This document shows, piece by piece, positions 11,789-50,935 of a stretch of 64,000 bases of DNA (positions are counted from its first letter, which is position 1; every line of letters begins with the position of its first letter). The notes below the pieces were generated by a model, which was given only the letters and a program-made list of their open reading frames with translations, was not told the origin of the DNA and made no database searches. Source of the DNA: an uncultured Candidatus Saccharibacteria bacterium. Lineage in GTDB: Bacteria > Patescibacteriota > Minisyncoccia > Phycocordibacterales > CSBR16-119. Both the position numbers and the translations under genes were made by a program. The DNA is taken from contig CAZLAD010000002.1 in assembly GCA_964557535.1 (NCBI GenBank), forward strand, positions 85,560 to 149,559. Reading direction: 5' to 3'.

Positions 11789-11817
11789 CCCGTTAGAGAT
11801 AGCAAACTTTCGTTTGC
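11789..11817 (-). promoter_or_regulatory. proximal half of the leader-helix motif (AUCUCUAACGGG-AUG) plus hairpin GCAAAC-GAAA-GUUUGC upstream of pilT
   Basis: CCCGTTAGAGAT sits directly 3' of the pilT start codon on the plus strand. The hairpin co-varies with the pilN copy. Confidence 0.5.
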
Positions 11818-11869
11818 GTATCTAATTTATTATTTTGTAAATAATCGACGACCATCTGATTTAATCTAA

Positions 11870-13618
11870 TTAAAACTTATAAACTTCAGTTATCGGAATT
11901 TGGCCGTTTACAGCCTTGATCAAAGCATCTTCTTTCATCGTAAGCATTCCCTTTGATCTAACAACGGCGTGAATGTCGAGCTCTGTCGGTGATTTCAATA
12001 TTGCCGACTCAACGTCTTTGTCTACTTCAAACATTTCAAAAATCGCCATACGTCCTCTTGTTCCCGAAGGACAGGTTGCTGAAGGCACTGTCTTAATCAT
12101 TTTATCACCTATTTTTATTTTTGCTCTATGTTCTGCTGGAAAATCAGCAAATTCTTTGTTGATAATTGCAGAAATAGATTCATCCATAGGCACTTCTTCG
12201 CGTGCATCTTCGCAGGTCTTCTTTGCAAGTCTCTGAGCAATCGCGAGTACAAGTGTCGGTGCAATCAAAAATGGATCAACACCCATGTCGATAAGACGTG
12301 GGATTGCTCCAGCTGAGTTGTTGGTGTGGAGCGTCGATAATACCAAGTGACCGGTCAATGCCGCTTGTATGGCAAGTGAGGCCGTTTCCTTGTCGCGAAT
12401 TTCTCCAACAAGAATAACGTCCGGATCTTGGCGCAAAATTGAACGAAGTCCCGAGGCAAAAGTATACCCGATTTCCGGCATAACCTGAGACTGACTAACG
12501 CCGTCGACATGATATTCGACTGGATCTTCAAGGGAGACGACGTTTTTGGATTCGCGATCGATTTCGTTTAGCATGGCGTATAGGGTCGTAGTTTTACCGG
12601 AACCTGTCGGACCCGTAATCAAAACAATTCCGTAAGGCACTTCTAGTGCGCGCTTCACCATCTCTAGATGTTCTGAAGTCATATCGAGATCTTCCAGACT
12701 TTTTACGCCCTTTTCTGCATCCAAAATTCGCATAACGACTTTTTCTCCATAATACGCAGGGAAAGTCGAAACACGTAAATCAATTTTGCGTCCATCAATT
12801 TTTGCCGTGAATCCACCGTCTTGGGGTTTGCGTTTTTCGTCGAGACGGAGTTTGGATAGTATTTTTATACGCGCGACAACCCCAGAATAGACATTTAGGG
12901 GGAGAGTGAGCGAGGTGTGCAATTCCCCATCAACACGAAAACGGACTTTGACTTCTTTGCCGGTATTTTCGATATGAATATCAGAAGCCATTCCTTCGAC
13001 AGCGTGGCGTAAAATGACGGCGACGACTTTGATGATAGGTGCTTCTTCGACAATCTTTCTCTCGTCGACTTCCTCGGCTTCGGTCTCAGAAATTCTCGAA
13101 CCCTTGGCATTCTTTTGATCTCTCATTTGGGCTTCGGCTTGAGACAACTCGGTATCAAGATCCGAAAGGGCCTGATCAACCTCTCCGGTCATTCCTCGAT
13201 AGCTATCCAAAACAGCGTCATAGGTCTTTTTGGTTATAACAAAAAGTTTATATGGGAGTTCATTTCTAGAAGAAATAAATTGTAAAGCATCAAGCGAATC
13301 GGTTCTGGCGGGATTGACGATTCCCACTTCCAAAACTTTATCTTTGAGTCCAACCGGCACGAACCCATACTGACGAGCTGAATCTTCGGATAGATACTCC
13401 AAAACCCTAGGGTCAAGTTCTTTTTGAGTAACAGACTTTGAAGGAATGCCAAAGAACTGGCTCTTGAAAGCAAGTAGTGCTTCATCATCGATATCTGTTT
13501 CTTTGGCCAAAGCCTCATCGACGTCACCGTTGTATTTTTTTTGAGCAGCTGTGGAAACCCGTGCCAACAACTCTGGCGTCAAAAGACCTTGTTTGACGAG
13601 TCCCTCAAGAAAACTCAT
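11870..13618 (-). CDS. pilB: type IV pilus assembly ATPase PilB (GspE family)
   Basis: Walker A TGPTGSGKTTT. LVLSTLHTNNSAGAIPRL. N-terminal GSPII domain. 582 aa. Confidence 0.92.
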   Translation of the reverse strand: MSFLEGLVKQGLLTPELLARVSTAAQKKYNGDVDEALAKETDIDDEALLAFKSQFFGIPSKSVTQKELDPRVLEYLSEDSARQYGFVPVGLKDKVLEVGIVNPARTDSLDALQFISSRNELPYKLFVITKKTYDAVLDSYRGMTGEVDQALSDLDTELSQAEAQMRDQKNAKGSRISETEAEEVDERKIVEEAPIIKVVAVILRHAVEGMASDIHIENTGKEVKVRFRVDGELHTSLTLPLNVYSGVVARIKILSKLRLDEKRKPQDGGFTAKIDGRKIDLRVSTFPAYYGEKVVMRILDAEKGVKSLEDLDMTSEHLEMVKRALEVPYGIVLITGPTGSGKTTTLYAMLNEIDRESKNVVSLEDPVEYHVDGVSQSQVMPEIGYTFASGLRSILRQDPDVILVGEIRDKETASLAIQAALTGHLVLSTLHTNNSAGAIPRLIDMGVDPFLIAPTLVLAIAQRLAKKTCEDAREEVPMDESISAIINKEFADFPAEHRAKIKIGDKMIKTVPSATCPSGTRGRMAIFEMFEVDKDVESAILKSPTELDIHAVVRSKGMLTMKEDALIKAVNGQIPITEVYKF

Positions 13619-17741: not shown

Positions 17742-17937
17742 TGGCGCTTTGTAGAACTTGAATTTTCTAACTCCAAAGAAGCGGGTTTTTGATGTTCTTG
17801 TACTTCCCGATCATCGATCTTCTATTTCTCACGAATATATTTTAGCATGTCTAAATAGTCGGTTTTTGTTTCGAATATCACCTGCTCGCGCGCCGACACC
17901 TCAATCAAATGACAAAAGTCATTTTCTTGAGTCATTG

Positions 17938-18024
17938 CGGAGACGAGAGGATTCGAACCTCCGAGGGCTTTTACACCCTACCTCGTTAGCAGTGAGGCGC
18001 TTTCGACCACTCAGCCACGTCTCC
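17938..18024 (-). tRNA. tRNA-Ser (anticodon GCU), class II with long variable arm
   Basis: Reverse complement folds as acceptor GGAGACG/CGTCTCC, D-loop GAGTGGTCGAA, anticodon loop CUGCUAA, long variable arm, T-loop GGAGGTTCGAATCCTCT. No encoded CCA. Confidence 0.85.
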
Positions 18025-18182
18025 ATGAGGCTCACATTAACATAAAATATGTGTATAATAAACCCGCGTAAATGGATGATTGGATGAGATGGGCAAGACA
18101 CAAACTGCTTTGTGTCGAGCCGGAGCCGAAAGCTCCGACCACGAATCCAATTGTCCCGAAGGGCGACAACGCAAAGCATGTT

Positions 18183-18269
18183 GGAGGATTGGATGAGTGG
18201 TTTAAATCAGCGGTTTACTAAACCGCCGGCTGGTAAAACGGCCCGTGAGTTCGAATCTCACATCCTCCG
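18183..18269 (+). tRNA. class II (Ser-like) tRNA with apparent ACU anticodon (unusual; possible pseudo- or atypical tRNA)
   Basis: Acceptor GGAGGAT/ATCCTCC, T-arm GTGAG-TTCGAAT-CTCAC, anticodon arm GCGGT-UUACUAA-ACCGC, long variable arm. Shares the GAGTGGT D-loop with the neighbouring tRNA-Ser. Confidence 0.6.
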
Positions 18270-18289
18270 CAAATTTTCTAAAAAAGCAA

Positions 18290-18311
18290 CCCCGGGCACT
18301 GTGGCCCGGGG
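18290..18311 (-). terminator. GC hairpin CCCCGGGC-ACUGUG-GCCCGGGG followed (minus strand) by a U-tract
   Basis: 8-bp GC stem. The minus strand continues UUGCUUUUUUAG. Lies 25 nt downstream of the small minus-strand ORF. Confidence 0.6.
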
Positions 18312-18335
18312 TATGAGGAGGTTGACCCTCTCGGA

Positions 18336-18446
18336 TCAACTACCAATGGTTAAAATCATGCACAGACAGATGAGGAAGACTACCACGAAAAGTCTTGGTC
18401 TCGTGGTGATCTCATCAAACAGATGCCAGCTGTACTCGGTCTTCAT
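18336..18446 (-). CDS. 36-aa hydrophobic peptide (MKTEYSWHLFDEITTRPRLFVVVFLICLCMILTIGS), candidate small membrane protein or type-I-toxin-like
   Basis: Not in the ORF track (under 60 aa). ATG 18446, TGA 18336-18338. Preceded by TTGACC-N16-TATTAT (18466-18493, minus strand) and followed by the terminator at 18290-18311. Confidence 0.35.
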   Translation of the reverse strand: MKTEYSWHLFDEITTRPRLFVVVFLICLCMILTIGS

Positions 18447-18465
18447 GGTGGTGTGGTTTTCCTTC

Positions 18466-18493
18466 ATAATACCCCAAAAGCAAATTTGGTCAA
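18466..18493 (-). promoter_or_regulatory. sigma70-like promoter TTGACC-N16-TATTAT
   Basis: The minus-strand -35 (18488-18493) and -10 (18466-18471) match the consensus. A G-tract block GGGTGTGGGGGTAAGGGGAGAGG lies just upstream. Confidence 0.45.
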
Positions 18494-18659
18494 GATTTAC
18501 CCCCATTTTCCTCTCCCCTTACCCCCACACCCATATTTATGTTTTTTAGGATGTTGTACGTTAGTTATTCTCTGAATATAGGTTTGGACTTGCACTCTCT
18601 AGGGGGAAATAGTGTATAATTAAAGGCGTTAGTAATTTATCAATTTATTTAAGGAAATT

Positions 18660-24494: not shown

Positions 24495-25718
24495 TTATTT
24501 TTTAGCTAACTTCTCTTGCAATGAATTAATAATGACTGCATTTGCTATGTTCTGCCAAAGAACGGCACTTTTACCAGTTCTATTAGGATTACTACCATAC
24601 TCTTTCGTGTGGGCTTCTAGGATTTGACCAACTAGTTTTGAACCGTGTTTCTCCAAAAAATCTTCTGGAGCAACAGCCCAATCAAGTTCACCTTCTCTTT
24701 CTTCGAGTAAGAAACGTAGAGATGCGAATATAGGCATTATAAAACCTTTTGCAAGCCTGTAATCAACAATCTCTCCTGTGAAAGGTAACTTAATCTCTAA
24801 TGCTTTTTTATTTTCACCTTTCCCTCTATATTTTTCAACGCCTTTTATTCTACCGAAAATTTTAGTACCTGAATTTTTGGCGTAATCTTCAAAATTTTTG
24901 TAGAGATATTCGTATAATCTGACAATAGAAGGAAGTAGATGGTATATCTTTTCATAGGATGAACGATTTTTCTTGTTCGACCATTTTTTGAAACAAGAAT
25001 TGAGACCTGTATATGTAACTGTTGGTTGATTTGTTTCCGAATAAAGTTCTCTGTTAAGGGCCGTCATAAGTGCTATGAGTTCTTCGATTGGGAATACCGC
25101 TTCGTCGTCGCCTATATCCTGATTTTGATAGAAAATTATTTTCCTACTCAAACTTCCTAGTGCTTCTTTTATTGGATCAAACTCTTTATTTTGGTTACTT
25201 ATTGATTTTTCATCAACCTGCACACTTGTATTTCTCGCCCTCGCCAATTTAGTAGCAAATTCATCTGCCCCTTCTATGACTGTTACAAATATGGGTAGAT
25301 CTTTGAGTGATTCATCTTTTATTACTTTCTTCAATACTTCATATGTATGTCCCCCATCGACAAGACCTCCTTCTGAATTACCTTCTTCATCCTGACCAAA
25401 ATCAATAATTACTCTCTTGTCTTGATCATTAACTGCTGGAAAGTGTACCTTTTTAGCAATTAAGAGTAGTCCTCTGTTACAATCTGTGAAATATTCTGGT
25501 TCATCTTCCAAGGTTTCTAACATTTGTTTACATGGTTTACTATTGATATCAGGTTTTCTCGGATTAGGTACTAGTGGTATATCTTGAGGAAGGTCTTTAA
25601 GTAAAATAAAAAGGAAATGCGTCTTTATGACATCATTCCCCTCTGTGTCGTTATAATGCAACTTGCGAGTTATAGTCCTAGATTGTGAGTAATTAAACTC
25701 AAGATTTGTGTTCGTCAT
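24495..25718 (-). CDS. orphan 407-aa protein in an AT-rich islet next to a tRNA; possible ParB/Srx-fold (DGQHR/DGQQR-like) defence-associated protein
   Basis: GC about 36% against about 40% in the flanks. Motif GLVDGGHTYEV resembles the DGQHR/DGQQR signature of DndB/DUF262 ParB-like nucleases. Sits between the recG terminator and tRNA-Ile, with no integrase. Confidence 0.5.
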   Translation of the reverse strand: MTNTNLEFNYSQSRTITRKLHYNDTEGNDVIKTHFLFILLKDLPQDIPLVPNPRKPDINSKPCKQMLETLEDEPEYFTDCNRGLLLIAKKVHFPAVNDQDKRVIIDFGQDEEGNSEGGLVDGGHTYEVLKKVIKDESLKDLPIFVTVIEGADEFATKLARARNTSVQVDEKSISNQNKEFDPIKEALGSLSRKIIFYQNQDIGDDEAVFPIEELIALMTALNRELYSETNQPTVTYTGLNSCFKKWSNKKNRSSYEKIYHLLPSIVRLYEYLYKNFEDYAKNSGTKIFGRIKGVEKYRGKGENKKALEIKLPFTGEIVDYRLAKGFIMPIFASLRFLLEEREGELDWAVAPEDFLEKHGSKLVGQILEAHTKEYGSNPNRTGKSAVLWQNIANAVIINSLQEKLAKK

Positions 25719-25861
25719 ATATTTCTTATCTATAAAATTAATAATTTTACGTCAACTCAAAGCAGGGTTACTTTGGCCAACTTTGATCTGCGACAAGGTT
25801 GTCTTCAAATCAACATTGAAATTATATACTATGGAATATCTATTGTCAAAAAAATATTTTG

Positions 25862-25936
25862 TCCACCCTCCACGACTCGAACGTGGGACCCTCGAGGTAT
25901 AAGCTCGATGCTCTAACCAACTGAGCTAAGGGTGGT
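25862..25936 (-). tRNA. tRNA-Ile (anticodon UAU)
   Basis: Reverse complement: acceptor CCACCCU/AGGGUGG, D-arm GCUCAGUUGGUUAGAGC, anticodon arm UCGAG-CUUAUAC-CUCGA, T-arm CCACG-UUCGAGU-CGUGG, discriminator A. Confidence 0.8.
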
Positions 25937-29440: not shown

Positions 29441-30157
29441 ATCCAACGTATATTCCCCCACCCTTGTCCTCTTTATCGAATATGCGATCCCGCCCATTTC
29501 ATTTGCAATACTTCGAACATAAGTTCCCGAGGAACAATTTATTTTAAATTTTGCGATTTGGAATTTCTCTGGAGCATTTTCTAAAATGTTTTTCCAAGCA
29601 CTTTTGATTTCTTCTTGACGGAAATCACCATGAACGAGATTGATTCGGTGCTGAATTTCCATCAAAACATCTTTCGCGGAAATGAAGTGCTCCTCCAATT
29701 TATCTAAACTAAAAATCTCAATTTCTTTTGTCGGCGCCTCAAAATCAACTCCATCTCGCGCCATTTGAAAAAGTGGTTTTCCGTCTACCGTCTTTGACGA
29801 ATACGCCGGATATTTTTGTGTATGTTTTCCAACAAAACTATCCTCGCTACCCATTACCATTTTCTCGCGGTCGCGAATGTTTGGTAATCTTGGGATTCCG
29901 AGGATGTCGTATGTGTCGGTTTGAACTCCGAACAAAACTTCGAAAATGTATTCTTTATCGAGACCCAAATACTCATCTTTCTTCTTGCATTCCTCGCCCG
30001 TGAGCACTATCAAAAGCCCCTCAGCCATTGGGTCCAGCCGTCCAGCATAAGTCATGGGAACACCATTGTATTCTGAATTCTCTGCGCGAAATCTCTCCAG
30101 ACACTCAAGCGGCGTTTCGCCAAGATTTTTGTAGAGTTTTAAAACAATCTTATTCAT
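29438..30157 (-). CDS. truB: tRNA pseudouridine(55) synthase TruB
   Basis: GRLDPMAEGLLIVLTGE catalytic Asp motif. 239 aa. Confidence 0.88.
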   Translation of the reverse strand: MNKIVLKLYKNLGETPLECLERFRAENSEYNGVPMTYAGRLDPMAEGLLIVLTGEECKKKDEYLGLDKEYIFEVLFGVQTDTYDILGIPRLPNIRDREKMVMGSEDSFVGKHTQKYPAYSSKTVDGKPLFQMARDGVDFEAPTKEIEIFSLDKLEEHFISAKDVLMEIQHRINLVHGDFRQEEIKSAWKNILENAPEKFQIAKFKINCSSGTYVRSIANEMGGIAYSIKRTRVGEYTLD

Positions 30158-31023
30158 TTGATAATAGTTATTAGGACTATTCCTAGGGTAAAAAGAATTA
30201 ACGACAAAATCTTTCGTTTTGTTAACTTCTCTTTCAAAACGAACACGCCCGACAATACGGCAAACAAGAATCCGGTTGATTGTACAGCCAAGACATAGGA
30301 CGTTGGACCACTAGAGAAAGCAAACATCGTCGATACATAACTAAGTGCCATAAAAATTCCAAATAAAGTCAGTGGCCAGAATTTTGGTTTTATTTTTTGT
30401 AAGTCATCTTTCTTTTTATAAATAAAAATAAGTATTAAGAAAATTATAGAAGCCCCCAAAGTATTCACGAAACTATAGAAGACAGGCGTTGACACAGTTA
30501 ACGAAACTTTGTCCAGAGTTGATCCGATAGCCATACAAAACATAGCAATAATCATATAGACGACCGCCCTATTATATTTTTTACCGCTATCGCCCGAGAC
30601 ATTTTCTGAAAGTAAAAGATATGTAGCGTACACAATAACAAAAATACCAATAATTCCAACAAGGCTCGGCACCTCTTTAAGTAAAATAAAAGATGTCCCA
30701 ATATTAAAAACCGGAAGTATAGCTTTTATTGGAGTAACTTGGACGATTTCACCCTCTCGTATGGCTTTATATAAAAAGTGTGTTTGTACTGGATATAAAA
30801 CAAACCAGATAATCAAAAGTGGCCACCAGAAACGCCAAGGCAAGTGCCAAATATCGTTAGGTATTGGTAAAAACAAAAACAGCAACAACATGGGTAGTAG
30901 ACAAAAAGTTTGCATGACAAAACCCATACCGAAATTGCTGAAAGAACCCGTAAGACTTTTTTCATACGTTCTCCGAGCACCAGAAGTAATAGCACTAAAT
31001 AAAGCAAAAGGGAGCCATGGCAT
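30154..31023 (-). CDS. EamA/DMT-family membrane transporter
   Basis: About 10 TM helices in two repeated halves. Overlaps the truB start by 4 nt. Confidence 0.6.
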   Translation of the reverse strand: MPWLPFALFSAITSGARRTYEKSLTGSFSNFGMGFVMQTFCLLPMLLLFLFLPIPNDIWHLPWRFWWPLLIIWFVLYPVQTHFLYKAIREGEIVQVTPIKAILPVFNIGTSFILLKEVPSLVGIIGIFVIVYATYLLLSENVSGDSGKKYNRAVVYMIIAMFCMAIGSTLDKVSLTVSTPVFYSFVNTLGASIIFLILIFIYKKKDDLQKIKPKFWPLTLFGIFMALSYVSTMFAFSSGPTSYVLAVQSTGFLFAVLSGVFVLKEKLTKRKILSLILFTLGIVLITIIK

Positions 31024-31084: not shown

Positions 31085-31678
31085 ATGTTATCTTATAGTG
31101 AAGTTCGAAAGAACAAAGTAATTATGTACGAAGGCGAGCCTTGGCTTGTCGTTGACGCGCACGTTTTTAGAAAGCAACAACGAAAACCAGTAAACGCCAC
31201 CAAACTCAAGAACCTCATTTCTGGGCGTATGGTCGAGACGACTTTTCACGTCTCGGACAAAGTCGAAGAAGCCGACATGGGTAAACGCACAATCAAATTC
31301 CTCTTCCAGAAAAAAGATGAGCTATGTTTCGTCGATCCGAAAAACCCAGCCGATCGCATGTTTCTCTCTGGCGAACTTCTCGGTGACCAAATAAAATTTT
31401 TAAAAGAAAATACCGAAGCAACCGCCAGCATCTTCACCAACGATGACGACGAGGAACAAATTATCGCTATCGAGCTCCCGGTCAAGATGGCTTTCGAAGT
31501 CAAAGATGCGCCACCATCGATCAAGGGCGACACCGCAACCGGCGGCAACAAAGTTGTGACTTTGGAAAACGGTGCGAAGCTCGACGTTCCCCTATTCGTG
31601 GAAGCTGGAGATAAAATCATCGTAAACACTGAAACTGGAGAATATGTCGAAAGGTACAAGGAAAGTTTTGATGCGTAG
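31085..31678 (+). CDS. efp: elongation factor P
   Basis: 197 aa, three-domain EF-P, N-terminal KOW-like region. Confidence 0.9.
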   Translation: MLSYSEVRKNKVIMYEGEPWLVVDAHVFRKQQRKPVNATKLKNLISGRMVETTFHVSDKVEEADMGKRTIKFLFQKKDELCFVDPKNPADRMFLSGELLGDQIKFLKENTEATASIFTNDDDEEQIIAIELPVKMAFEVKDAPPSIKGDTATGGNKVVTLENGAKLDVPLFVEAGDKIIVNTETGEYVERYKESFDA

Positions 31679-31735
31679 TGTGAAGTGAGTCGGAAGTAGC
31701 AAGTCGTAAGTCGCAAAGAAAATACAAAGAGCGAA

Positions 31736-31764
31736 GGGCCGAAAGACTTACAGTCCCTCGGCCC
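31736..31764 (+). terminator. hairpin GGGCCGA-AAGACUUACAGUCCC-UCGGCCC after efp
   Basis: 7-bp GC stem followed by a U-rich stretch. Confidence 0.5.
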
Positions 31765-31788
31765 TTGGTGTTTCGGTCTAAGCCGAAC

Positions 31789-31998
31789 TCAGAAATACAT
31801 GACAACGTACTTTCCGTCTGATCCCCTCTCGACGTGGAAGATGACGTTTTCTGGTCCGAGATAAGTGGCCTTATCTGGTCCTTTACGTCTAAGGAGATCG
31901 AGTCTGACCCTTCGCCCTTCGGAGAATGGTGTTGGCTCTGTTATCACGTTGTCAAAAGAACGATCCTGTCCTGCTTGAGTCCCGGTGGTGGTTGGCAT
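31789..31998 (-). CDS. small GC-rich orphan ORF (about 69 aa, MPTTTGTQAGQDRSF...GKYVVMYF)
   Basis: GC about 55% with atypical codons. Its own promoter-like TTCGCA...TATATT lies upstream. Downstream of the purA terminator. The track ORF is longer (to 32256) and overlaps purA. Confidence 0.35.
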   Translation of the reverse strand: MPTTTGTQAGQDRSFDNVITEPTPFSEGRRVRLDLLRRKGPDKATYLGPENVIFHVERGSDGKYVVMYF

Positions 31999-32049
31999 GG
32001 GATGTAAAATGTTCGTTGGTTGATAATATAACACGAAATCCCAAAATGC

Positions 32050-32078
32050 GAAAGCCCCGCGAGAATACGCGGGGCTTC
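32050..32078 (-). terminator. terminator AAAGCCCCGCGAGAAUACGCGGGGCUUCG
   Basis: Hairpin 20 nt after the purA stop. Confidence 0.7.
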
Positions 32079-32098
32079 GCCTTGTGGGCGTAAAAGAA

Positions 32099-33453
32099 CT
32101 AAGTGCTTTCCTCAGAGACTTCCGAATCAGACTTCTGGTTGATGCCAAGCCCAAGGAAAGATTCAGCTCCGAGAGCTTTGTGAGCACCGACTTGATCACG
32201 ATGAACCGTTTCCTTACGATCGGGGCCCATGGAGATCGTGTTGATGGGAACTCCAACCGCTTCTTCGATCAGGTTGACGTACACTTGAAACTGACTCGGC
32301 AGGCCACGATCGGCTTGCAAGCCATTCCATCCCGGCAACACCGTGTATTCGGGCTCAACGCCAATAGTGATGTCGTAAGGCATGCAGTCCGTCAACTTCC
32401 CGTTGATACGGTAGTGCGTACAGACCTTCACGAAATCGAAACCGTTCAGAACGTCGGCTTTCGTCATCGCAAGCTCGGTGATACCGTTCACCATCACTGC
32501 ATAACGCAGTGCTGGGAGATCAAGCCATCCACAACGACGCGGGCGTCTCGTGGTACTACCGAACTCGTCTCCAGCCTTGCGGATGGCTTCACCGATTTCG
32601 TTATCAAGCTCGGTCGGAAACGGACCACTGCCAACCCTAGTACAGTACGCCTTGAAGATCCCAGTGATATTCCCGATCCTGTTTGGAGCAACACCAAGTC
32701 CAGTACAAGCTCCTGCAGAGATCGTGTTACTACTCGTCACGAACGGGTATGTACCGAAATCAATGTCGAGCAATGTACCTTGAGCCCCTTCGGCCAAGAC
32801 ACGTTTACCTGCACGTAAAGCATCGTTCAAGTAATGCTCGCAATCGACCATCTTGAATTCACGCAACTGCTCCACCGCATCCAGCCACTCCTGTTCGGCT
32901 TCGGTTTTCATACCGGGCCGATCATAAAGAGAGAGTAGTCTTTCGTGCTTTAGTACAAGCGTTGCGTAGCGATCCCTGAAAGCTGGCAATGAAAGGTCCC
33001 CGAGACGCAGACCGTTACGTCCGGTCTTGTCCATATAGGTTGGACCAATGCCCTTTAGGGTACTACCGATTTTCTCGAGTCCCTTTTCGGCTTCGCTTGC
33101 GGCATCAAGTGCACGATGCGTTGGTAGGATGAGGTGTGCGCGACGCGAAAGCAGTAATGCCTTGCGCACATCTACGCCGTCAGCTTCCAGGGCCTTCGCC
33201 TCCTTCAGGAAGATCACCGGGTCCACCACCACACCATTCCCCACCAAGTTCACAGTGCCCTCGCGGAACACACCGCTTGGGATGGTATGCAGGACATGCT
33301 TGTGCCCTTCGAAGAGCAGTGTGTGACCGGCATTCGGTCCACCTTGGAAACGAGCAACAATGTCGTAATCCGGCGCAATCACATCAGTGACTTTTCCTTT
33401 GCCCTCGTCGCCCCACTGGGCGCCAAGGAGAACATCCATTCTAGTGTGTCCCA
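32099..33453 (-). CDS. purA: adenylosuccinate synthetase (GC-rich, probably horizontally acquired)
   Basis: P-loop GAQWGDEGKGK, GTP and IMP-binding motifs. GC about 55% against about 40% genome-wide. Start taken at MGHTRMDVLLG. Confidence 0.9.
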
Positions 33454-33567
33454 TTTGTGGGGGTTTTGGTTTTTGTTTCAATTTTTAAAGCCCAGGGAAT
33501 CCCTAGGCTTTGCAATCCTCGACAAATTTATATGAAATTACATCTCGTGTCAATTCAAATCTCAAAA

Positions 33568-33600
33568 GAAAAGAGCCCCGAGAATACGGGGCTCTTTTCT
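33568..33600. terminator. bidirectional terminator AAAGAGCCCCGAGAAUACGGGGCUCUUUUCU
   Basis: After the secY stop. Confidence 0.85.
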
Positions 33601-33627
33601 CATTTCCAATTTCTAACCTCTAACTTT

Positions 33628-34896
33628 TTAGTATTGTCTCATTGAAACCTGTCCTTCGACTTTCTTCAAAATATCCAGGATGACCGACACGACGATTAGC
33701 ACTGCCGTACCTCCGATGGCCAAAGTCGAAAGCCCTGTCACTTGTTGCATAATTATCGGAAGCACAGCCACAAGACCAAGGAAAATCGCACCCAAAAAAG
33801 TGATTCGAGAAACAATCTTACCAATATACTCACTCGTCGAAACTCCTGGACGAATACCTGGAATAAACGCACCATTTTTCTGTAAATTTGTAGCAACAGA
33901 ATCCGGATCAAAAGTTACTGCTGTGTAGAAATATGTAAACAAAAACACCAGAACAAAGTACGCCAGAGCATAAATCCAAGTAGATTGCATAAACCAAGTC
34001 ATGGCTTTTGAAACAGCCAACAAGAACGCATGTGACGAATTAGCGAAAAAGTTAGCAATAAGTTGTGGAAACAAAAGTAACGATAGCGCAAAGATGACTG
34101 GCATAACTCCGGCCTGGTTGATACGTAGTGGTAGGTATGATGATCTAGCTGCCGCAGTTCCTCCGGCTCTAGCCTGATTTGCGTATGTTATTGGAAGCAA
34201 TCTTTCAGCTTCGGTGATGATAATAATTCCCGCAATAAGAATTAAAGCGACGACGACGAATCCGATATAAGTTAGAAGTTGTGCCTTGTCAAAAGTAAAT
34301 ATAAGCTGACTAATTTGTCCTGGGAGCGCTGCCACAATACCCGCAAAGATAATAACGGATACACCATTTCCAATACCTCGTTCTGAGATAAGCTCACCCA
34401 ACCAAACCAAAAACATAGATCCGGCCATAACAACAATCATTGCGAGAGCTTTCTCGTAAGCGGTCAAAGCTTCCAGAACGCCATTTTGAAAAAGAATAGT
34501 TAGAAGCGCGTATCCTTGGATAAGAGAAAGTGGGACTGTCAGATATCTAGAATATTTGGCAAATTGTGTTCGTCCCATCTCGCCCTCTTCATGATACATT
34601 GACTTAAGTCTAGGAGACATAAGAGTCAAGAGTTGCATGATAATTGATGCAGTAATATAAGGACCGACTCCCATCATTACAATAGACAAGGCTGACAATC
34701 CACCACCAGAGAAAATATTTAAAACACCCAGAAGCTGGTTACTCTCGAGGAATCCTTGTAGACGAAAAGCATCAACACCTGGTATCGGAATAGTCGAAAG
34801 CAATCTAAATATTGCCAATATTAACAAAACAAAAATTATTTTCTTGCGAAGATACTTGTCCGTGAAAACTAATTTTATTTTTTGCCAAAGTGTCAT
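33628..34896 (-). CDS. secY: preprotein translocase subunit SecY
   Basis: 10 TM helices, typical SecY. 422 aa. Confidence 0.95.
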   Translation of the reverse strand: MTLWQKIKLVFTDKYLRKKIIFVLLILAIFRLLSTIPIPGVDAFRLQGFLESNQLLGVLNIFSGGGLSALSIVMMGVGPYITASIIMQLLTLMSPRLKSMYHEEGEMGRTQFAKYSRYLTVPLSLIQGYALLTILFQNGVLEALTAYEKALAMIVVMAGSMFLVWLGELISERGIGNGVSVIIFAGIVAALPGQISQLIFTFDKAQLLTYIGFVVVALILIAGIIIITEAERLLPITYANQARAGGTAAARSSYLPLRINQAGVMPVIFALSLLLFPQLIANFFANSSHAFLLAVSKAMTWFMQSTWIYALAYFVLVFLFTYFYTAVTFDPDSVATNLQKNGAFIPGIRPGVSTSEYIGKIVSRITFLGAIFLGLVAVLPIIMQQVTGLSTLAIGGTAVLIVVSVILDILKKVEGQVSMRQY

Positions 34897-37697: not shown

Positions 37698-38133
37698 TGT
37701 TTTTTAGCTGTTAGCTTCTGGCCATTAGCTATTAGCTAAAGGCTAATGGCTAATGGCTCCGGTTCAGTAATATCTCACGTTTTTTCTTGAAGGTCCCGAG
37801 GGGCATTCAAGGAGAAACGCGGATTAAACTGAACTGAGGGCTATATTAGCAGATTGAGATTTTATGTCAATCAAAATAATTTGAGCCCCGGTCTTGTTAG
37901 ACCAGGGCCCCATAGCTGACACGTAAAGTGCTTTTGATAGCGACTTGAATAGCCAAAGGACTTTGGTCCTCGGCAGGGGCAAGAGCACCTGCAAGAATGC
38001 TCTGCCACCCGCCGAGACCATACGACTTGTTGGCATGAACTCTATCATACTCCAACCATATTGTCAAGCGATTTTGGACAATCTTTTACTACCCTGAATT
38101 TATTCATTCCAACGTTCCTCATTGTCTCCACCG

Positions 38134-38170
38134 GACCGTCTCCGCTAGGCCGGACCTAGCGGAGACGGTC
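38134..38170. repeat. perfect 16-bp GC-rich hairpin GACCGTCTCCGCTAGG-CCGGA-CCTAGCGGAGACGGTC
   Basis: Seen directly. Adjacent to palindrome copy 3. No U-tract on either strand. Confidence 0.7.
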
Positions 38171-38184
38171 TCGCGGATAAAAAT

Positions 38185-38222
38185 GTATCATTTTTGTGGA
38201 CGGTCGTCTCAAAAAATGATAC
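38185..38222. repeat. long AT-arm/GC-core palindrome, copy 3 (GTATCATTTTTGTGGACGGTCGTCTCAAAAAATGATAC)
   Basis: Near-identical to the palindrome at 1989-2026 downstream of the wHTH-Cas2-like gene. Confidence 0.8.
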
Positions 38223-38290
38223 GCAAGAAAAATTATGAGATATGAAACAAGAAAGCCCGCGGGCGGCTTTCAAGGGCCAAGAGCGGGCTA

Positions 38291-38689
38291 TTAGGCAGAT
38301 TTGAGGTGGTAACGGCCTTCGAGATAGACACGAAGGGCGTCTTGTACGATTATCAGATCTTTTGTTTCTAGCTCCTCAGACAGAAGGTTCGGCACCATCT
38401 CGATGAAATAGTGCTGGAACATGGCCGCTAGATCATCCAACTCTTCGTTGAAGTTTGCCATGTCTTTTGGAGTAGCTCTGTGATTCCATTCAGTAATCGG
38501 TAGGGCTGCTGGCACGCGATTTCCAGAAAGCCCTTTAAAGGCTATCCTATGCGCTTTTGAGAGAGCTATGTCGATCATACTCACCAACGTGAGCAAACGA
38601 CTCGCCTCTTTAGGGAACAGTTCGCGAATGAGATCGTGCACTGTGGGGATCTCATTTTTTGAGGTCTCATTTTTAGTTAGCATGGCCAC
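38291..38689 (-). CDS. orphan 132-aa protein inserted between rplE and rpsN
   Basis: Higher GC (about 47%). Five spaced His residues (possible DinB-like helical bundle, speculative). Confidence 0.55.
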   Translation of the reverse strand: MAMLTKNETSKNEIPTVHDLIRELFPKEASRLLTLVSMIDIALSKAHRIAFKGLSGNRVPAALPITEWNHRATPKDMANFNEELDDLAAMFQHYFIEMVPNLLSEELETKDLIIVQDALRVYLEGRYHLKSA

Positions 38690-38775
38690 TGAGTTTGTTT
38701 TACCTTACACCAATCTCTAAAAAAACAAAAGCCCCTTTTGGGGCGATTGTTTTCTTAATACTTAATTCCTAATTC

Positions 38776-42452: not shown

Positions 42453-42632
42453 TGTTGTTTAATGAGAAATCGTCGTCATGGCTAGGTCGTGGGTCTCTAG
42501 AGAATCCAGAGCGTCACCGCCATCTTCGTATTTCATTTTCAAAAAAATTCAGGCCCTTCGGCCGAATAGGTAGCATACTAGCAGATAGGGTTTTGAAAGT
42601 CAAACTTGGTAAGCCAGTTTCTTTTTAATAAT

Positions 42633-42660
42633 TGACAATATGGCTTATATATGATACTAT
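42633..42660 (+). promoter_or_regulatory. sigma70-like promoter TTGACA-N16-TACTAT for the opposite-strand lipoprotein gene
   Basis: -35 at 42633-42638, -10 at 42655-42660, ATG at 42679. Confidence 0.5.
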
Positions 42661-42678
42661 CATGCAAAACCAACCCTG

Positions 42679-43182
42679 ATGAAGCACCTGCTCTTCCTTT
42701 TTTCCTGTGCGTTGTTCATCTTCTCCTGCGCCAACCCTTCCCTCGAGGAAGAAGCGATGGGTGAGATCACACAGCTCCAACCCAACAACCAAAGCGCATC
42801 TATGGAACCAACGAGTGCAATAGATGAGCACCTGCGGTTCAAACTCCCCCAAGGTTCATACCAGAATCTGGTCTATCTGATGGAGTTGAATGCAATAATC
42901 GGCGAGCATGCTGACCTGACCACTTGGTGGTATGCGACCCCACCGATAAATGGGTACGTTCACGACCTGAACGTAATACAAGGACCTACACCTGAGGAAT
43001 GGCGTCAACTCCAAACTCCTCGATGGATCCTGGTCCATGTGAGATCCAAAGGTGCACCTTGGGGAGAGAAATTGTTTTCCTACAGTCTTCTGCCGAGCGA
43101 TGACATCCTCTTCGATTCACCCGCAGACACGGTCCATGCAGACATGATCCGAGATGCTATAAACGAAATACTGAAGGAGTAA
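42679..43182 (+). CDS. putative lipoprotein (167 aa), high-GC, inserted antisense within the S10 operon
   Basis: Signal peptide with a lipobox-like LFSCA/IFSC. GC about 50% with atypical codons. Has its own promoter and terminator. Confidence 0.6.
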   Translation: MKHLLFLFSCALFIFSCANPSLEEEAMGEITQLQPNNQSASMEPTSAIDEHLRFKLPQGSYQNLVYLMELNAIIGEHADLTTWWYATPPINGYVHDLNVIQGPTPEEWRQLQTPRWILVHVRSKGAPWGEKLFSYSLLPSDDILFDSPADTVHADMIRDAINEILKE

Positions 43183-43202
43183 ACGCACTAATGAACAACG
43201 CG

Positions 43203-43236
43203 AAAGCGCCCCGAGTATACGGGGCGCTTTCTGCTT
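43203..43236 (+). terminator. terminator AAAGCGCCCCGAGUAUACGGGGCGCUUUCUGCUUUUCU (bidirectional-capable)
   Basis: Perfect hairpin plus U-tract after the lipoprotein gene, 3 nt from the rplB stop. Confidence 0.8.
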
Positions 43237-43238
43237 TT

Positions 43239-47887: not shown

Positions 47888-48232
47888 CTAGTCGGCTCTC
47901 ATCTGCAGTACTGGCACCCAACTTCCCGTTGCAAGACCGTGGATCACGTAGGTTCTGTCGAACCAAACGCGAAAGAGTCGCTCTTTGAGCACGGCCCTGA
48001 TCACTTCGTACCAATCACTCTCCTTTCTGATGCAACGCTTCAGGTGGGTTTCATGCTCCAACACTTCAGATCTCCACATGCTTTCCTTTGCTTGAAGATC
48101 AATGCCCTTGTCCACATCCTTGAAATCGATTTGAAATTCGAAGTCAAGGTCTGCATCGCTTTTGGAAAGCTTCTCAGCTATTTCTTTCAACTGTCGGAGT
48201 CCTGCTAGGATATCCGTGCTTCGCTTTGTCAT
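47888..48232 (-). CDS. orphan 114-aa protein, higher-GC, own promoter and terminator
   Basis: GC about 48%. TTGACA-N17-TAATTT lies upstream on the minus strand. No recognisable domain. Confidence 0.5.
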   Translation of the reverse strand: MTKRSTDILAGLRQLKEIAEKLSKSDADLDFEFQIDFKDVDKGIDLQAKESMWRSEVLEHETHLKRCIRKESDWYEVIRAVLKERLFRVWFDRTYVIHGLATGSWVPVLQMRAD

Positions 48233-50578: not shown

Positions 50579-50935
50579 TTACGGCGAGTAAGTCTTGAGC
50601 TCTTCCAGCAAGGGGGCGGTGCTTATTTTCGAACCGCCCGAAAAGCTTTGATGTGACGCGCTCGTGCTTCGGCTGATAGTGTCAAAGACGATCTCGTCCC
50701 ATCCGGCCGGTAACGCTCGCCAAAACCTAACCGTAAGTGGCGACCGGCACGAGACGCCGATGTTTGTGCTATTGAAATCCGACAACGTCACGGCCTTTTT
50801 GTACGCCTCGTTCTCGAGCGCGGTCTGAAATACTCCTCCAGCGACGGTGTCCAGTTCGTTGTCAGGAGCAAAGGCCTGGGCCCGCAAGAATGTGCTCACA
50901 AGCACGAAAAGTACAGCAGCAATGATGTTCTTCAT
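50579..50935 (-). CDS. secreted 118-aa protein, GC-rich (about 52%)
   Basis: Signal peptide MKNIIAAVLFVLVSTFLRAQA. Atypical composition. Confidence 0.55.
   Translation of the reverse strand: MKNIIAAVLFVLVSTFLRAQAFAPDNELDTVAGGVFQTALENEAYKKAVTLSDFNSTNIGVSCRSPLTVRFWRALPAGWDEIVFDTISRSTSASHQSFSGGSKISTAPLLEELKTYSP

Follow-up and report, generated by a model that had tools for sequence, protein, structure and literature searches.

The window analysed here, a 64-kb stretch (64,000 nucleotides) of contig CAZLAD010000002.1, carries purA, the gene for adenylosuccinate synthase, at the end of a ribosomal-protein operon. Our results suggest, with a probability that we put at roughly 0.88, that the coding sequence (CDS) of this gene came from uncultured Flavobacteriales with genomes of high guanine plus cytosine (GC) content (60-64%), and that it was acquired by the ancestor of a small Paceibacteria-like clade of the candidate phyla radiation (CPR, or Patescibacteria). 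That purA is foreign, with the Flavobacteriales as its donor lineage, is strongly supported by the sequence comparisons. Acquisition from a higher-GC donor had been proposed earlier from the letters of the window alone (hereafter the sequence-only reading); it is upheld by an identity gradient, by a neighbour-joining (NJ) tree and by the Patescibacteria neighbours of the gene, all of which are independent of base composition. Loci from other genomes are cited by our own handles (L001 and the like).

Origin of the purA coding sequence

PurA of the window is 79-81% identical to its homologues in the high-GC Flavobacteriales, 58-62% to those in other Bacteroidota and 45-48% to those in other phyla (46-48% to the E. 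coli, Bacillus and plant enzymes). Among the best 120 matches in a database of 5.8 billion proteins, every named one that did not lie on a CPR contig was a 'Flavobacteriales bacterium' (73-80% identity). The phylogenies, i.e. NJ trees from Kimura-corrected distances with 200 bootstraps, place the CPR copies and the high-GC Flavobacteriales in an exclusive clade inside the Bacteroidota (146/200, outgroup-rooted), and seven CPR-borne copies in an exclusive clade of their own (168/200 and 171/200). A tree rooted on the alternative purA allele of L010, described below, misplaced the L009 copy, and the outgroup-rooted tree was used instead. The sequence-only reading had called for a homology search and a PurA phylogeny of this kind, and both now point to high-GC Flavobacteriales as the donor lineage. 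The PurA tree is not congruent with the ribosomal proteins, nor does an unrelated bimodality of GC account for purA, these being the two outcomes which that reading had named as speaking against itself.

The two Flavobacteriales purA loci that we fetched (L088 and L090) have the gene order fur-STAS-purA-rsmF, with relA/spoT ahead of fur in L090; the surrounding DNA has 60-62% GC, and GC at third codon positions (GC3) is 0.76-0.80 in the gene. The homology of window purA to these copies sets in exactly at the donor ATG and ends near the donor stop codon, some 32 codons short of the stop codon in the window. Over the codons of the 322 residues that are unchanged between the two, GC3 amounts to 0.77-0.82 for the donor gene and 0.54-0.55 for the window gene. 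The GC3 of purA is partly ameliorated, i.e. ~0.8 in the donor, ~0.55 here and ~0.40 in the host. Transfer in the opposite direction, from CPR to Flavobacteriales, was rejected, both on account of the common gene order in which the two fetched Flavobacteriales copies lie and on account of the identity gradient within the Bacteroidota.

The window protein matches PF00709 from end to end (540 bits with a cut-off of 27, E=4e-162; all 416 profile positions covered) and passes the NCBIfam equivalogs NF002223 (537.5 bits, cut-off 402) and TIGR00184 (480.1 bits, cut-off 395.55). All 13 of the E. coli catalytic and binding residues compared (D13, K16, N38, H41, T129, R143, Q224, T301, R303, R305, K331, D333 and S414), which we take to be important for that enzyme, are kept. 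The open reading frame (ORF) is intact in every relative carrying purA, and the ratio of nonsynonymous to synonymous divergence (dN/dS, by the NG86 method of Nei and Gojobori) is 0.08-0.12 among the CPR copies, values that are approximate since dS (0.8-1.7) is near saturation. The gene is thus predicted to encode a functional adenylosuccinate synthase (EC 6.3.4.4) and is under purifying selection. A pseudogene was rejected, given the conserved catalytic residues and the low dN/dS, and so was an identity as PurZ, for which the score against NF038379 is 122 bits (cut-off 300). As to the start codon, the options are the TTG at 33481 that opens the mechanically called ORF, the ATG at 33454, which is the likely one, and the donor-homologous ATG at 33439, where the public gene call (446 aa) begins.

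The placement of purA between secY and efp is found in at least nine independent assemblies of related CPR genomes; the carriers are L001, L002, L003/L004, L005/L007, L009, L011, L086/L087 and L091, from differing samples. In these carriers purA adjoins efp, and also secY or gmk where the contig extends that far, and it has 52-57% GC against 42-47% in its flanks; a further copy, on L092, has 50.7% GC and no flanking genes. The window genome is itself Patescibacteria/CPR and Paceibacteria-like: the closest relatives of its EF-P, SecY, L15, L5 and TruB are Patescibacteria metagenome-assembled genomes (MAGs). EF-P is 84-95% identical to that of six species-level relatives and 51-62% to a next tier labelled Nomurabacteria, Paceibacterota or Parcubacteria, and SecY is 74-85% identical to that of the CPR relatives.

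The sequence-only reading had described purA and its surroundings as about 55% GC in a genome of about 40%, with G/C-ending codons unlike every housekeeping gene nearby. The block is indeed GC-rich, although the contrast was slightly overstated, with 53.6% for the CDS and 52.5% for the block at 31789-33481 against 42.75% for the window. purA is the GC peak among all 1341-bp windows of the 64 kb (z=4.3, relative to non-overlapping 1341-bp windows with a mean of 42.5%, a standard deviation of 2.6% and a maximum of 48.5%), and the GC step at both ends of the block is sharp. Codon usage follows in part: GC3 is elevated (0.56 versus 0.40 +/- 0.063 in 60 core ORFs, z=2.6), but the core genes smpB, tpiA, rpsH and efp also exceed 0.5, and total GC is more extreme than GC3. 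A native, vertically inherited purA might be expected to look GC-rich simply because the enzyme is highly conserved and contains much Gly, Ala, Arg and Pro, and its GC1 of 0.62 and GC2 of 0.42 are high, as such proteins predict; the dinucleotide signature (delta*) gives no outlier either, with 17 of 157 windows deviating more than purA. Vertical inheritance is nevertheless very improbable in view of an identity of 80% to one Flavobacteriales lineage, as against 45-48% for the enzymes of other phyla and 40-46% for the purA products of sister CPR genomes, of the raised synonymous GC3, and of the lack of purA in the slot of L006 and L008. Still harder to credit is an artefact of assembly or binning, in which a Flavobacteriales fragment would have been mis-joined into a CPR contig, even though sharp GC steps bound the block and high-GC Flavobacteriales matches to PurA are very abundant in public metagenomes. 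purA is not a chimera, because its junctions recur in the nine or more independently assembled contigs, which stem from different runs and MAG projects; the GC3 of purA lies between those of donor and host, its nucleotide identity to the donor is just 73%, a CPR-conserved promoter and leader stand directly at the start codon, and the reading frame continues into a CPR-specific tail. In length, the contig from which the window was taken is of the 0.2-1 Mb class.

The cassette between secY and efp

In the history that we favour, an ancestor of the Paceibacteria-like clade would have taken up a Flavobacteriales purA and retained the CDS alone, between secY and the convergent efp. The order runs from the secY terminator through promoter, structured leader, purA with its CPR tail, hairpin and small ORF to a terminator (Table 1).

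Table 1. Features in and around the purA slot, by position in the window
Feature	Position	Strand	Description
efp	31085-31678	plus	convergent with purA; downstream edge of the slot
Terminator-like hairpin	31734-31766	minus	15-bp stem; between small ORF and convergent efp
Small ORF	31789-31998	minus	69 aa; 50% GC
GC hairpin and T-rich tract	32036-32077	minus	3' of purA; hairpin at 32051-32077; kept in all relatives
purA CDS (adenylosuccinate synthase)	32099-33454	minus	451 aa; start at the ATG conserved in relatives (MGHTRMDVLL...)
CPR-specific C-terminal tail of PurA	32102-32195	minus	~32 codons; not in Bacteroidota PurA
Putative donor-derived core	32196-33439	minus	blastn against L088 and L090, 73% nucleotide identity over 1231-1255 nt
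5' leader hairpin	33488-33510	minus	AAGCCTAGGGATTCCCTGGGCTT; followed by A-rich leader
Predicted sigma-70-type promoter of purA	33525-33553	minus	TTGACA-17-TAAATT
secY terminator hairpin	33567-33600	minus	perfect 14-nt arms, TATTCT loop, then T-run
secY	33628-34896	minus	final gene of the ribosomal-protein operon; upstream edge of the slot

The promoter upstream of purA is kept in all the CPR relatives, with either purA allele, and is, to judge from this conservation, recipient DNA. The leader, likewise conserved in all the relatives, has no Shine-Dalgarno sequence. Its hairpin has a 10-bp stem by RNAalifold, with compensatory changes in 2 pairs among 7 sequences, and the hairpin of L096, a genome with the alternative purA allele, is identical to that of the window; an Rfam scan of 31500-33800 returned nothing above threshold, the weak matches being to the terminator hairpin alone. 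At its N terminus window PurA has five residues (MGHTR) beyond the donor Met at 33439, and its C-terminal tail contains a loose motif, G-x-L-L-x-[LIM]-G, that is common to all CPR-borne PurA of both alleles. The element that follows purA is a direct-repeat copy of the secY terminator region (~75% identity over ~42 nt), and the repeat pattern occurs at two sites only in the window (2 matches, 0 expected), bracketing the promoter and purA. The corresponding hairpins of the relatives have different loop sequences, and the repeats may be nothing more than a pair of related terminators.

The small ORF downstream of purA had been counted as part of the imported block, an assignment that our results contradict. 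It is a member of a rapidly evolving CPR family, which in CPR genomes occurs 3' of purA only. The family hidden Markov model (HMM) matches L001, L002, L003, L005/L007, L009, L011, L086, L087 and L091, and gives no match in L006, L008 or the Flavobacteriales loci; a 48% identical homologue adjoins the alternative purA allele in L096/L097. The small ORF, whose family accompanies both alleles, accordingly belongs to the recipient and not to the donor. An AlphaFold2 model of its product has a disordered N terminus and a C-terminal four-stranded beta-meander (predicted local distance difference test score, 82-89 over residues 31-69), for which Foldseek found no significant match in the PDB (best E=0.4).

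The alternative PurA lies at the same position in L010, L096/L097 and P0123. It is 40-46% identical to window PurA and 56-61% identical among its own copies, its best named matches are to diverse Bacteroidota (41-45%), and its gene has 55% GC and no donor closer than 45%. L096 has the promoter and terminator of the window and the homologous small ORF, with a different PurA between them, and it shares 95% SecY identity with L011, a carrier of the Flavobacteriales-type purA. Comparison of L011 with L096 at the nucleotide level gives 71-93% identity for secY and efp, 77-81% for two regulatory islands and 23-67% for the purA CDS. Since the Flavobacteriales-type PurA stands much nearer to its Flavobacteriales homologues than to the alternative allele, an exchange of the CDS in place, i.e. 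xenologous replacement within a cassette owned by the recipient, must have occurred. Recombination through the conserved flanks would be the most plausible route for the swap.

The remaining contents of the slot are also variable. In relatives, gmk stands between secY and purA in three types, with 29-33% mutual identity and all of 50-55% GC; the slot of L006 holds gmk and an unknown ORF without purA, and that of L008 holds one unknown ORF alone. The sequence-only reading had the purA block replacing the usual adk-map continuation after secY. In the window secY is directly followed by purA, but the description is fair at clade level only: in none of the close relatives does adk-map follow secY, its place being taken by gmk and/or purA, and the distant Paceibacteria relative L034 retains secY-176 aa-adk-map. 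The markers around the slot of L006 are discordant, its EF-P (95%) being among the closest to that of the window and its SecY (74%) and L15 (66%) the most distant, which may be a trace of recombination across the boundary between secY and efp. In L096, purB (Lyase_1 and ASL_C domains; 11797-13167, plus strand) is situated 2.3 kb from purA and has 53.5% GC and a GC3 of 0.61. The matching position of the window is taken up by DUF1761, tmRNA and smpB.

Between efp and truB the window has an EamA/DMT transporter gene (30154-31023, minus strand; 36% GC) with a 4-nt overlap with the start of truB. Apart from the window lineage, only the identical L001 has the transporter gene; the relatives L005-L011 and L096 lack it.

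GC-rich accessory genes and competing histories

The sequence-only reading listed five further small orphan ORFs and suggested that they share the composition of purA and perhaps its donor pool. The shared composition is confirmed, all of them being GC-enriched with GC3 z-scores of 1.4-4.2 (the gene at 47888-48232 lies on the minus strand). The common donor pool finds no support, since homologues are few and unnamed and the family of 50579-50935 is syntenic in a CPR relative. The orphans have no Pfam domains, and HMMER, run without an index over 1.84 billion representatives, matched them to themselves and to a few unnamed homologues on short contigs, with no Flavobacteriales homologue for any of them; in the relatives, no gene within 10 kb of efp is homologous to any orphan. 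Of all ORFs in the window, the one at 50579-50935 has the highest GC (54%, with a GC3 of 0.66); it lies on the minus strand directly downstream of recJ and encodes a small secreted protein with a signal peptide (…LRAQA). Its syntenic homologue in L094, a CPR relative with a RecJ 70% identical to that of the window, has 43% amino acid identity and is GC-rich too. The family looks vertically inherited, and the GC excess, being present in the relative as well, is persistent and not decaying. GC-rich accessory genes are a clade-wide pattern that goes beyond what simple amelioration fully explains.

Two of the orphans interrupt the ribosomal-protein operon: 38291-38689 (minus strand) stands in the rpsN/rplE junction (37698-38775), and 42679-43182 (plus strand), whose product begins with a lipoprotein-like signal (…FIFSC), stands in the rpsS/rplB junction (42453-43238). 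In every relative the rplE/rpsN gap measures 550-1348 bp, and each time it holds a different ORF of 108-234 aa, with no homology among these ORFs. A gene of L094 (1745-2785, minus strand; also in L095) encodes a 346-aa secreted protein with a type A sorting domain of the type IX secretion system (T9SS; TIGR04183, 42 bits). It has 54.5% GC and a GC3 of 0.67 between flanks of 34-39% GC, and has no counterpart in the window. The sorting signal being specific to Bacteroidota, this gene looks like another Bacteroidota-derived import into the clade, and it leaves a Bacteroidota donor pool, possibly even a Bacteroidota host, as a hypothesis. The suggestion of the sequence-only reading that the donor was perhaps a host has the same hypothetical standing.

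Several observations weigh against a single Flavobacteriales import as we propose it. The divergent L009 copy is unplaced, the clade of eight copies being recovered in 17/200 bootstraps, and monophyly of the Flavobacteriales in just 133/200; with nodes as weak as these, the NJ trees do not settle between single and repeated acquisition. Either purA allele could have been resident first. No vehicle turned up: tblastx against L088 and L090 found no flanking donor DNA around purA, there is no integrase- or transposase-type ORF between secY and efp and no tRNA nearby, and no carrier was present in phage and plasmid collections, where the best matches are Bacteroidota at 58-61% identity. The purA locus thus has none of the marks of a mobile island, i.e. 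a mobility gene, a tRNA target or a donor flank. The accessory genes are GC-rich across the clade, including the alternative purA allele with no close donor, so part of the GC signal of purA may not be inherited from the donor. With respect to the role of PurA in this genome, the 64-kb window contains no purB, hpt or other gene of the adenosine monophosphate (AMP) branch.

Two of these points lead to alternative histories. The secY-efp slot might be a hotspot at which foreign genes of nucleotide metabolism are captured again and again, the Flavobacteriales-type purA having entered more than once. Its varied contents (three gmk types, two purA alleles and the unrelated ORFs in L006 and L008), the position of L009 outside the seven-copy clade and the 76-83% mutual identity of the CPR copies, a divergence as large as that from the Flavobacteriales, would agree with this. 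Repeated entry is nonetheless doubtful, given the support for an exclusive seven-copy clade (171/200) and an N-terminal extension, tail motif, promoter and small ORF that are common to all the copies, that of L009 included; one entry followed by faster evolution in CPR is simpler. A somewhat better case, though still an unlikely one, can be made for a process intrinsic to the lineage, such as GC-biased gene conversion at recombining slots, that maintains the GC excess; this concerns the composition of purA and not its transfer. The slots are recombination-active, GC-rich accessory genes are found clade-wide (the alternative purA at 55% GC, purB, gmk and orphan ORFs), and the 50579-50935 family is GC-rich in both the window and L094. 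On the other side, a donor GC3 of 0.8 and the intermediate 0.55 of purA fit simple amelioration. A single Flavobacteriales origin of the CDS, followed by partial amelioration, is our preferred reading of these data. It could be extended, tentatively and with no great expectation that the extension will prove right, to a post-secY slot that acts as a promoter-equipped 'landing pad', exchanging foreign nucleotide-salvage genes and fed by a Flavobacteriales host or partner. This extension draws on the two purA alleles, the three gmk types, the nearby purB and the T9SS-domain protein of a relative. If it were true, the GC-rich accessory pool of the clade would come from high-GC Flavobacteriales, and these would be a physical host or partner of Paceibacteria for which no host is recorded; our literature searches found no link between Paceibacteria and a Flavobacteriales host.

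The rest of the window, with type IV pilus genes, peptidoglycan hydrolases, a tmRNA and small inserts in the ribosomal operon, fits a CPR episymbiont. Two divergent tRNA-Ser genes of 88 nt each, 79% identical, lie at 18183-18270 (plus strand) and 17937-18024 (minus strand). One has the usual GCT anticodon, and ARAGORN reads the other as ACT (A34), which is odd for bacteria; an ORF at 18112-18549 that overlaps the ACT-read gene is probably spurious. A tRNA-Ile gene with a TAT anticodon (25861-25935, minus strand) adjoins an AIPR abortive-infection gene (24495-25718, minus strand; PF10592, E=5e-28) of 35% GC, and the pair is a possible defence islet with a compositional bias opposite to that of purA.

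Significance and comparison with known systems

CPR bacteria are generally unable to make nucleotides and depend on partners, which are unidentified for most lineages. The predicted PurA would convert salvaged inosine monophosphate, aspartate and GTP to adenylosuccinate, and PurB, known from L096 and absent from the window, would then yield AMP, such that a genome-reduced cell could control its own adenylate supply. At this locus a purA borrowed from one particular Flavobacteriales lineage is retained under purifying selection by a whole Paceibacteria-like clade, in a slot that nucleotide-metabolism genes keep re-equipping. These observations suggest that reduced genomes of this kind are selected for control over the AMP branch, and they single out a concrete lineage that can be tested as donor or host of the clade.

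The closest counterpart of the window gene is the Flavobacteriales purA of L090 (GCA_016710965.1, JADJTW010000002.1), with 79-80% amino acid and 73% nucleotide identity over a core of 412 residues, a common start codon and all the motifs present. The donor-type gene has 420-424 aa, 62-64% GC and a GC3 of 0.76-0.80, and lies in the fur-STAS-purA-rsmF context; window purA differs in its five additional N-terminal and ~32 extra C-terminal residues, its GC3 of 0.56 and its CPR promoter and leader. E. coli adenylosuccinate synthetase (PDB 1ADE), compared at the level of sequence, shares its family and length class with window PurA (48% identity, E=2.5e-113) and differs by lacking the terminal extensions of the latter. 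PurZ of the Z-genome phages is a distant homologue (122 bits), and no phage copy exceeds 58% identity to window PurA.

With regard to mechanism, xenologous gene displacement means that a foreign orthologue takes over the position of a resident gene. The purA slot resembles it in its conserved flanks and in the deeply divergent orthologous CDSs of close relatives, and departs from the plain case in the C-terminal tail motif that is common to both purA alleles.

Bacteroidota have been reported to be over-represented as donors to Patescibacteria, the reported cases including the transfer of gyrB from Bacteroidota into a Paceibacteria MAG and the gain by Patescibacteria of nucleotide-metabolism genes such as thyA (PMC12455944). 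Our searches of the literature found no report of a purA transfer into Patescibacteria. The donor phylum, recipient class and functional theme of the reported transfers are the same as here; what differs is that the gene is purA, that its presence is clade-wide and that it sits in a fixed post-secY cassette, alternating with a second allele in sister genomes. In sum, this is a well-supported purA transfer of the already-known Bacteroidota-to-Patescibacteria type, an expected kind of event.

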